Below, piece after piece: positions 11,211-12,083 of a stretch of 64,000 bases of DNA (the stretch's first letter is position 1; every line of letters starts with the position of its first letter). The position numbers and the translations under genes are program-made. Where the stretch lies: the NCBI GenBank assembly GCA_963741955.1, contig CAVUKB010000005.1, positions 1,152,001 to 1,216,000 on the forward strand. Direction: 5' to 3'. Below the pieces are notes generated by a model, which was given only the letters and a program-made list of their open reading frames with translations, did not search any database and was not told the origin of the DNA. The stretch comes from an uncultured Acidobacteriota bacterium (GTDB lineage Bacteria > Acidobacteriota > Thermoanaerobaculia > Gp7-AA8).

Positions 11211-12083
11211 ATGACACGACCTCGTTTTCATGTTGCCATCATCATGGACGGCAATGGCCGCTGGGCATCCGAGCGCGGCCTTCCCCGCACCGCGGGCCAC
11301 CGCGCCGGCCGCGACGCGGTGCACCGGACCATCGAAGCAGCCCCGTCGCTGGAGATCGACGTCCTCACTCTCTATGCCTTCTCCGGCGACAACTGGCAGC
11401 GCCCTCCCGCCGAAGTGAGTCTCCTGATGTCGCTTTTCCGTCGAACCCTGGACGCCGAGCGTCGCCGGTGCCGGCGCGAGGGGATCCGGCTCCGGGTGAT
11501 CGGGCGACGCGATCGTCTGGAACCGGACCTGGTCGACGCGATCGAACGAACCGAAGCCGCCACCGCCGACGGAACGACCATGGCGCTGCGTCTCGCCATC
11601 GATTACTCGGGAAGAGATGCAATCGTCAGGGCGGCGGAGATCGCCGGCGCGACGAGGATTTGGGGAGTGGGGTTGGAGGACGAGCAGGCCGCCGCGGGAC
11701 GGCGACCTGCATCGTTCCGGAGGAACGACCCACAACGGCGACCTGCATCGTTCCGGAGGAACGACCCACAACGGCGCCCTGCATCGGTCCGGAAGAACGA
11801 TTCCGCCCGCGAGATCTTCCGCCGTTGCCTCGCTGCGGCGATCCACGACGACGACACCCCCGACGTCGATCTCCTCATCCGAACCGGGCGCGAGCTGCGG
11901 ATCAGCGACTTCCTCCTCTGGGAGGCCGCTTACGCGGAGCTCTGGTTCACCGATCGGATGTGGCCGGACTTCTCCGCGGCCGACCTCACCGACGCGGTTC
12001 ACGCGTACCGAGGCCGTATCCGCCGCTTCGGAGGTCTGACCACGCAGGAGTCCGGGAAGGAGGCCGCTCATGGAGAGGTGTGA
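11211..12083 (+). CDS. uppS: cis-prenyltransferase (undecaprenyl diphosphate synthase family) with an in-frame repeat insertion
   Basis: [68 protein letters not shown]. Confidence 0.9.
11685..11803 (-). repeat. In-frame 36-bp REP-like tandem repeat (about 3 copies) inside uppS
   Basis: acggcgacctgcatcgttccggaggaacgacccaca at 11699 and 11735, degenerate copy at 11771; encodes [12 protein letters not shown]. Confidence 0.85.

Follow-up and report, generated by a model that had tools for sequence, protein, structure and literature searches.

Repetitive extragenic palindromic (REP) sequences of the GTAG and CGTC superfamilies are short tagged palindromes whose partner genes, which encode REP-associated tyrosine transposases (RAYTs), are flanked by repeats in loci termed REPtrons. 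As described by Di Nocera et al. (2013, PMC3733652), these repeats are mostly extragenic but are sometimes found wholly within open reading frames (ORFs), as singles, dimers or clusters that, judged against shorter homologues, encode 20–30 or 43–82 amino acids. Palindromic repeats also lie in frame in probably functional genes of Rickettsia (Rickettsia palindromic elements, RPEs; PMC3733652, PMC3184786). Here we describe a comparable array in a 64,000-nt stretch of contig CAVUKB010000005.1 from an uncultured acidobacterium (the window), where it runs antisense through uppS, the gene for undecaprenyl/polyprenyl diphosphate synthase. We consider it about 80% probable that the extra segment of this gene is a REP-type hairpin array belonging to the window's GTGGG-tagged superfamily, which surrounds a RAYT-like gene.

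The window units share with the GTAG and CGTC repeats the short tagged palindrome and the repeat-flanked RAYT gene, and they differ from the descriptions in PMC3733652 in their GTGGG tag, their two hairpins, their 36-bp head-to-tail arrays and their Thermoanaerobaculia-like acidobacterial host. In the four of its supplementary files examined as text, uppS does not occur. RPEs, as characterized in PMC3184786, are single elements of about 105–146 bp with no known RAYT partner, whereas the uppS array spans 122 nt in 36-nt units. For the Group 3 REPtron of Stenotrophomonas maltophilia, systematic evolution of ligands by exponential enrichment (SELEX) indicates that stem sequence counts for much less than the tag, a base in the loop and the integrity of the stem; in its perfect-palindrome REP, mutation of the tag or that loop base abolishes cleavage, a stem mismatch nearly does so, and complement swaps in the stem have a modest effect (PMC8266576). 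That REP resembles the window units in its perfect stem, 3-nt loop and conserved 5′ tag; according to the same source it is 23 nt long with an 8-bp stem and a GTAG tag, whereas the window units carry a GTGGG tag and add a 10-bp hairpin to their 7-bp stem, and their RAYT-like protein is divergent. Because in-frame intragenic REPs and RPEs had already been described in 2011 and 2013 (PMC3184786, PMC3733652), the uppS array represents no new kind of biology. It is a clean, well-bounded case of a hairpin repeat tolerated in an essential enzyme, in a phylum whose REP/RAYT systems are little described.

A hairpin array in the uppS coding sequence

On the minus strand, the array occupies 122 nt (11685–11806) and consists of three 36-bp tandem units, the final one closed by a second hairpin; Tandem Repeats Finder reports it at 11699–11800 with a period of 36, 2.8 copies and 95% matches. 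The terminal unit reads GTGGG-TCGTTCC-TCC-GGAACGA-TGCAGG-TCGCCG-TCCCG-CGGCGG-CCTG and folds as two hairpins at −20.1 kcal/mol (z = −5.56), a stability reached by none of 200 shuffled sequences. A covariance model built from 11 terminal units (R1) gives it 70.7 bits, a score that includes the unit's own membership in the training set. The internal unit is identical to the terminal one over its first 34 nt and scores 28.6 bits, with hairpin 1 only, and the degenerate first unit, which differs at 7 of 36 positions, scores only 6.7 bits (Table 1). First units are also variant in the Family B arrays described below, where a GCGGG foot occurs at 58518, 58745 and 58998.

The product of the host gene matches the Pfam family Prenyltransf (PF01255) across the entire profile (positions 1–219 of 219; E = 1.3e-69, 234.5 bits against a cut-off of 27) and the TIGR00055 uppS model at 221.7 bits, against a curated cut-off of 109.55. 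Escherichia coli UPPS (1jp3; E = 8.1e-55) aligns in two blocks, window residues 7–142 with 20–155 and 215–277 with 185–247, which are separated by 72 residues in the window protein and by 29 in E. coli, leaving 43 extra. In an alignment of 23 sequences, all 66 invariant columns are present in window UppS, on both sides of the insert, and they presumably include the catalytic residues.

Relatives of this protein came from a search of a 5.8-billion-protein collection (the best 120 of 8,000 scored). Those with names are mostly Thermoanaerobaculia or Acidobacteria, and the relatives listed span 211–312 residues; P0001 is the window's own protein in an N-terminally truncated form of 263 residues. 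We aligned 21 relatives, among which the six longest were deliberately included, with the window protein (alignment A1). The extra segment is absent from all 21, which are 59–65% identical to window UppS: where the window protein has 48 residues (150–197), they carry 0–10, and the additional length of the longer relatives sits at the termini, not in the insert loop. Within the uppS frame, a 12-residue repeat is present twice and a 10-residue form of it once (residues 164–197). As 36 nt make up 12 codons, the roughly 144 nt that are extra at the protein level leave the frame and the catalytic core preserved. Each of the six reading frames runs open through the segment, so the absence of stop codons is by itself no evidence of selection.

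An AlphaFold model based on alignment A1 has a mean predicted local distance difference test (pLDDT) score of 78.3, with 135 residues, forming the core, at or above 90, and its top Foldseek matches are UPPS/DPPS structures (probability 1.00; target-normalized template modelling score of 0.70–0.87). Confidence drops below 50 at residues 149–184 and 187–190, between helices 134–144 and 191–210, and the insert is predicted to be a disordered loop between the two, about 45 residues long and rich in arginine. The loop at this site varies in length among relatives. In one of them, P0090, this loop carries a separate 10-residue expansion rich in Pro, Ala and Arg (alignment A1 columns 210–240), which shows that added length is tolerated there. 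From its sequence, the insert-bearing UppS most likely still works.

These results bear out the observation of an earlier note, made from the letters alone, which had described a REP-like repeat at 11650..11805 and inferred that it is tolerated as coding sequence. Its minus-strand string is found letter for letter at 11733→11685, the 36-bp period does keep the frame, and the conserved positions on either side, presumably those of the catalytic motifs among them, are intact, with the full Pfam profile covered. An alignment of the kind that it had proposed identifies the segment as an insertion relative to all 21 relatives, and the surface loop that it had expected corresponds to the low-confidence loop of an otherwise confident model. 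Insertion of a REP-type array is supported by the absence of the segment from relatives and by a gapless alignment to Family B (below), and the conserved residues are intact. Its figure of roughly 50 extra residues is right in kind and slightly high, the excess being 43 over E. coli UPPS and 48 over the relatives.

GTGGG-tagged repeats around a RAYT-like gene

With at most one mismatch allowed, the skeleton GTGGG-N7-TCC-N7-TGCAGG is found 19 times in the window, whereas shuffled sequence would give 0.03 occurrences. Two lie in uppS on the minus strand, and the other 17 fall at 57.8–62.9 kb on the plus strand in the repeats designated Family B, for which the string quoted in the earlier note occurs exactly at 58329–58377 (plus strand). 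Family B arrays are assembled from modules in the way that the uppS segment is, with one to three 36-bp units of which the last is closed by hairpin 2; among their ten terminal units at 57.8–62.9 kb, three end in CCTG and seven in ACTG. The uppS segment aligns with the three-unit array at 58029–58152 without a gap through all units and the terminal hairpin, and similarity fades after CCTG. Over the terminal 52 nt, the two share the same two hairpins (−17.9 kcal/mol and z = −2.92 for Family B).

Run over the window with filters off, model R1 recovered its training sequences together with ten matches outside the training set, all on the minus strand within Family B composite units and scoring 37–46 bits. 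Seven of these belong to a variant, B′, that reads GTGGG-TCGCGCG-TCC-CGCGCGA followed by a different, 11-bp hairpin; the copy listed in Table 1 scores 46.3 bits, from outside the training set, and folds at −24.7 kcal/mol (z = −6.48). The remaining three belong to B″, which reads GTGGG-TCGCGCC-TCCG-GGCGCGA. The uppS hairpin 1 most resembles that of B″, with differences at two base pairs and one loop base; the nearest counterpart of its hairpin 2 is that of B, with two pairs different. Within B, there is a further G–C to A–T exchange for which both one-step intermediates are present.

A census of units with the tag and a hairpin 1 of at least 6 of 7 pairs counted 32 (23 B, 7 B′ and 2 uppS-type), to which the three B″ copies are additional; in the window, all of these are confined to uppS and 57.7–63.2 kb. 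The tag is GTGGG in all 32 census units (GCGGG in some first units), conserved but neither GTAG nor CGTC. The window thus holds four hairpin-1 stems (uppS-type, B, B′ and B″) on one fixed foot and loop, and because B′ and B″ share foot and loop while their stems differ, it is a trait of the family that stems vary while the scaffold stays fixed. The units form stable single-strand hairpins from short palindromes, as REPs do; B, B′ and B″ are intergenic, whereas the uppS array is intragenic and in that respect departs from the extragenic placement for which REPs are named.

In the Family B composite array at 57673–59320, there is also a spacer, about 100 nt long, together with an inverted B′ or B″ unit on the minus strand. 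Like REP doublets (REPINs) and bacterial interspersed mosaic elements (BIMEs), this composite sets a plus-strand B and an inverted, minus-strand B′ or B″ around a spacer and is repeated in tandem beside a RAYT gene; it is an inverted REP doublet. In contrast to REPINs and BIMEs, its partners differ in their stems and second hairpins, and the uppS array has a single orientation.

The only RAYT-like gene in the window, which appears to encode a divergent Y1 (HUH) transposase, has repeat units on both sides, as in a REPtron (61507–61663 and from 62472). These are B and B′ only; no uppS-type unit lies near the gene. In the ESM Atlas, all 30 of the clusters nearest to its product carry Y1_Tnp, with a top score of 0.96. 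Its sequence shows an H-V-H motif and, in an SYERLL context, a tyrosine; we presume that they are the HUH motif and the catalytic tyrosine, respectively. No sequence relative of the protein was found in the Protein Data Bank, and a single-sequence AlphaFold prediction (pLDDT 48.9) was too low in confidence for use.

Shorter relatives of the units occur in the same region. At 57673–57861 are about 6.6 tandem 28-bp units made up of foot and hairpin 1 only, joined by a short GATGCCCA linker; they lack 8 bases of the 36-bp unit and are a second unit length in the family, one that is not a multiple of 3. Arrays of 14-bp units at 59235–59288 (3.9 copies) and 63030–63150 (8.8 copies) correspond on the minus strand to the foot and 5′ arm of B′ hairpin 1 and form tandem half-REPs at the ends of composite arrays. 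Within uppS, the 27 nt at 11658–11684 carry on the plus strand a GTGGGG-TTGGAGG string resembling the inverted foot and 5′ arm of B. A candidate inverted partner REP at 11667–11719 (plus strand, 19.3 bits) required a 17-nt insertion and had a misregistered hairpin 2, and we found it unconvincing.

Paired stem changes and the origin of the uppS variant

Compared with the Family B unit at 58329, the terminal unit in uppS differs at 11 positions, every one of them among the 34 paired columns, and the 15 unpaired columns are unchanged (Fisher p = 0.011); all 17 of its base pairs remain standard pairs. Five pairs have changed on both sides, four from a Watson–Crick pair to a different one and one to a T–G wobble, and one wobble has become C–G. 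With 11 random substitutions, all pairs survived in 262 of 1,000,000 trials if any position could change and in 12 of 1,000,000 if changes were restricted to the stems. The stem comparison is in effect one of a single lineage against another. Across the 11 terminal units (7 distinct rows), 96.6% of cells are paired, compared with 88.7% after shuffling (reached in 0 of 500 shuffles), and the 5 pairs changed on both sides compare with 1.1 in shuffles (reached in 1 of 500); controls with slid partners pair at 37.5–53.1%. Taken over six distinct rows, hairpin 1 reaches 97.6% pairing, and 3 of its pairs have changed on both sides. The earlier note had stated that foot, loops and linker are identical while both stems have changed and still pair, and these counts agree.

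Covariation of this kind is not proof of selection on structure, because template switching during replication of quasi-palindromes can, in one event and without selection, introduce matching changes into the two arms, as reported in PMC8794818. The claim that the covariation shows structure to be selected is therefore sound as to the covariation, which is real, and overstated as to selection, which is only plausible. The unchanged unpaired positions and the T–G wobble argue for some constraint, on few sequences.

Searches for further copies of the uppS variant covered the window, a genome collection and protein collections. A 22-mer with up to 3 mismatches matched only the two uppS positions in the window, where model R1 likewise found no further uppS-type copy; marginal R1 matches at 63619–63663 and 10029–10082 were inspected and are not credible copies. 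In genome_contigs, described as holding one genome for each of 185,579 species, there were no matches to the exact 23-mer core and none to the skeleton with free stem positions. These results show that this collection lacks the source genome and the whole family, and it accordingly says little on the absence of copies. With the insert peptide as query, a word-index search returned only the window's own protein among 94 candidates, and exhaustive HMMER comparison with 1.84 billion representatives gave four matches, namely the window protein and three unrelated repeat proteins; both searches used the uppS reading frame, and the other five frames were compared with nine array proteins only. Those nine (P0124–P0132; 2,248 residues in total) were the yield of a positive control in which the query was an open frame running through one Family B array, and they lie on contigs of 1,466,178 and 1,299,627 bp. 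All nine carry Family B words. At 47–71% identity to the window arrays they must come from other arrays, in a related genome or in the same one, and their position at other loci indicates that Family B is dispersed beyond the window. An uppS-type hairpin word occurs in none of the nine, and one linker-derived word occurs once, in a nonrepeat tail.

What gave rise to the uppS variant can be read in several ways. An old Family B or B″ array could have diverged in place, its stems changed by template switching and its units homogenized, with neither a subfamily nor selection on structure involved. This is possible, if doubtful. It fits a variant that is so far unique across the window, the nine array proteins and the peptide searches, it calls on an established source of matched arm changes (PMC8794818), and it accounts for two full units that are identical, as after recent duplication or conversion. 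However, changes at 11 of 34 paired and 0 of 15 unpaired positions suggest a constraint on foot and loop beyond mutational bias, the T–G wobble is not what template switching would give, and the multicopy B, B′ and B″, outside genes, likewise vary in their stems while foot and loop stay fixed; the lack of other copies is weak evidence when the source genome lies outside the searched collections. Alternatively, the array could be one copy of a distinct, multicopy sister subfamily with a dedicated second RAYT elsewhere, as the earlier note had envisaged. We regard this as unlikely: a second RAYT is unnecessary, because the single RAYT-like locus is already surrounded by B, B′ and B″, at least three further variants of hairpin 1 with a common foot and loop, and the uppS variant keeps that foot, loop and linker, so that the same enzyme could serve it. 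Nor was another uppS-type copy found in the window, in genome_contigs or among proteins, although perfect hairpins and two identical units would suit a recent copy of an active element and genomes with several REP families have family-specific REPtrons, as described in PMC3733652. The same perfect hairpins and identical units, together with the untouched foot and loops, could also mean that the array is no dead relic: the site would still be processed, as a live substrate of the RAYT-like protein, or selection would maintain its DNA or RNA structure. We think this rather improbable. If it were true, unit number could change in 12-codon steps and produce a length-variable surface loop in an essential cell-wall enzyme, and the locus would be a natural test of recognition by tag and loop only, with a single RAYT and four stem variants.

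Two further explanations concern the gene and the assembly. A pseudogene in the making, with the insert-bearing uppS inactive or dispensable and a second, intact uppS elsewhere doing the work, is quite improbable: the frame is kept, all 66 invariant columns, the full Pfam profile and a confident core fold are retained, uppS ends within the start of the following gene, an overlap of stop and start typical of a working operon, and tblastn found no second uppS in the 64-kb window. With six open frames, however, an open frame proves little, and the window is only 64 kb of the genome. A repeat-induced misjoin that placed a REP array into uppS is very improbable, even in a window unusually rich in repeats (68 tandem-repeat rows) and with P0001, the only other protein record, being the window's own and hence not independent; uppS continues in frame on both flanks, and a unit type unseen in the other window arrays leaves no source for such a join.

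Several points weigh against assigning the uppS segment to a RAYT-associated REP superfamily. The RAYT-like protein scores below threshold both with NCBIfam NF047646 REP_Tyr_transpos (E = 8.7e-15, 54.9 bits; curated cut-off of 80) and with Pfam Y1_Tnp (E = 0.073, 13.6 bits; cut-off of 23), and its activity is only presumed. The GTGGG tag differs from the published GTAG or CGTC. No Family B counterpart exists for 27 nt of the extra segment (11658–11684), and relatives that are only 59–65% identical provide neither a true empty site close to the source nor a date for the event. No second uppS-type copy was found in the window, genome_contigs or the protein searches, and the pairing statistics come from 6–7 distinct, related sequences, whose kinship can beat shuffles.

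We nonetheless favor a REP-type array of the GTGGG-tagged superfamily as the origin of the segment. In outline, the array would have arrived in the way that these units generally spread, presumably through the handling of single-stranded hairpins by a RAYT, and its arrival would have been followed by, or have included, changes in unit number. It would have persisted as an in-frame insertion in a tolerant loop, since only such insertions could do so in an essential gene. Stem variants would arise and persist freely, the uppS copy being one of them, if the family is recognized by foot, loop and an intact stem and not by stem sequence. The variants in the window mirror the SELEX pattern for a perfect-palindrome REP, and the tag- and loop-dependent recognition reported there (PMC8266576) suggests that one RAYT could serve all four stem variants. 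With one fixed foot and loop, these natural variants beside a single RAYT-like gene could be used to work out the recognition rules of a divergent, GTGGG-tagged system. The earlier interpretation thus survives in part, as a probable in-frame insertion of a RAYT-type REP, which rests on architecture, relatives and RAYT context; its second subfamily is unlikely, and its inference of selection is only plausible.

Feature coordinates and other repeats in the window

Table 1 Positions of uppS, its repeat units and the GTGGG-tagged repeats around the RAYT-like gene. Arrows mark units given in minus-strand reading direction.
Feature	Position	Strand	Description
uppS (undecaprenyl/polyprenyl diphosphate synthase), 290 aa	11211..12083	+	Pfam, TIGR00055 and E. 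coli UPPS matches
Extra coding segment, aa 150–197 (14 residues, then three 12-residue units)	11658..11801	+	Absent from relatives, predicted disordered
Terminal REP-like unit	11733→11685	−	Foot GTGGG, 7-bp hairpin 1 (loop TCC), linker, 10-bp hairpin 2 (loop TCCCG)
Internal 36-nt unit	11769→11734	−	Foot, hairpin 1, linker, 5′ arm of hairpin 2
Degenerate first unit	~11806→11770	−	Foot GCGGA(A), one broken stem pair, Family B-like G in linker
Family B composite repeat array	57673..59320	+	28- and 36-bp hairpin-1 units, terminal hairpin 2
B″ example (3 copies)	57975..58024	−	Stem TCGCGCC/GGCGCGA, loop TCCG
REP units, one flank of RAYT-like gene	61504..61700		B′ on minus strand at 61507–61553; B on plus strand at 61579–61663
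RAYT-like, putative Y1 (HUH) transposase gene, 213 aa, divergent	61729..62370	−	NF047646 (below cut-off), ESM Atlas
REP units, other flank	62440..63150	+	Three 191-bp composite units (B plus, B′ minus), then 14-bp array
B′ example	62610..62658	−	Foot GTGGG, loop TCC, stem TCGCGCG/CGCGCGA; hairpin 2 CTCCCCGGCA-TCC-TGCCGGGGAG

Downstream of uppS, the next ORF (12070–13236), which matches FAD_binding_3, DAO and Lycopene_cycl and is an FAD-binding oxidoreductase gene, starts 14 nt inside the 3′ end of uppS (12070–12083), an overlap that suggests co-transcription. Directly upstream of the uppS start, 10594–11152 holds tandem repeats with periods of 157 and 207 bp (89–96% matches) whose sequence is unrelated to the REP units. 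Just beyond the oxidoreductase gene, about 4.4 kb of tandem repeats with periods of 295–399 bp (94–98% matches) extend over 13254–17619. Elsewhere in the window, 40134–40690 and 43066–43193 hold G-rich 170-bp repeats with runs of a GAATTCA heptamer and a separate array of a GATAACA heptamer, and a repeat with 150/300-bp periodicity (~80% matches) at 2699–3446 possibly encodes a repeated protein domain.

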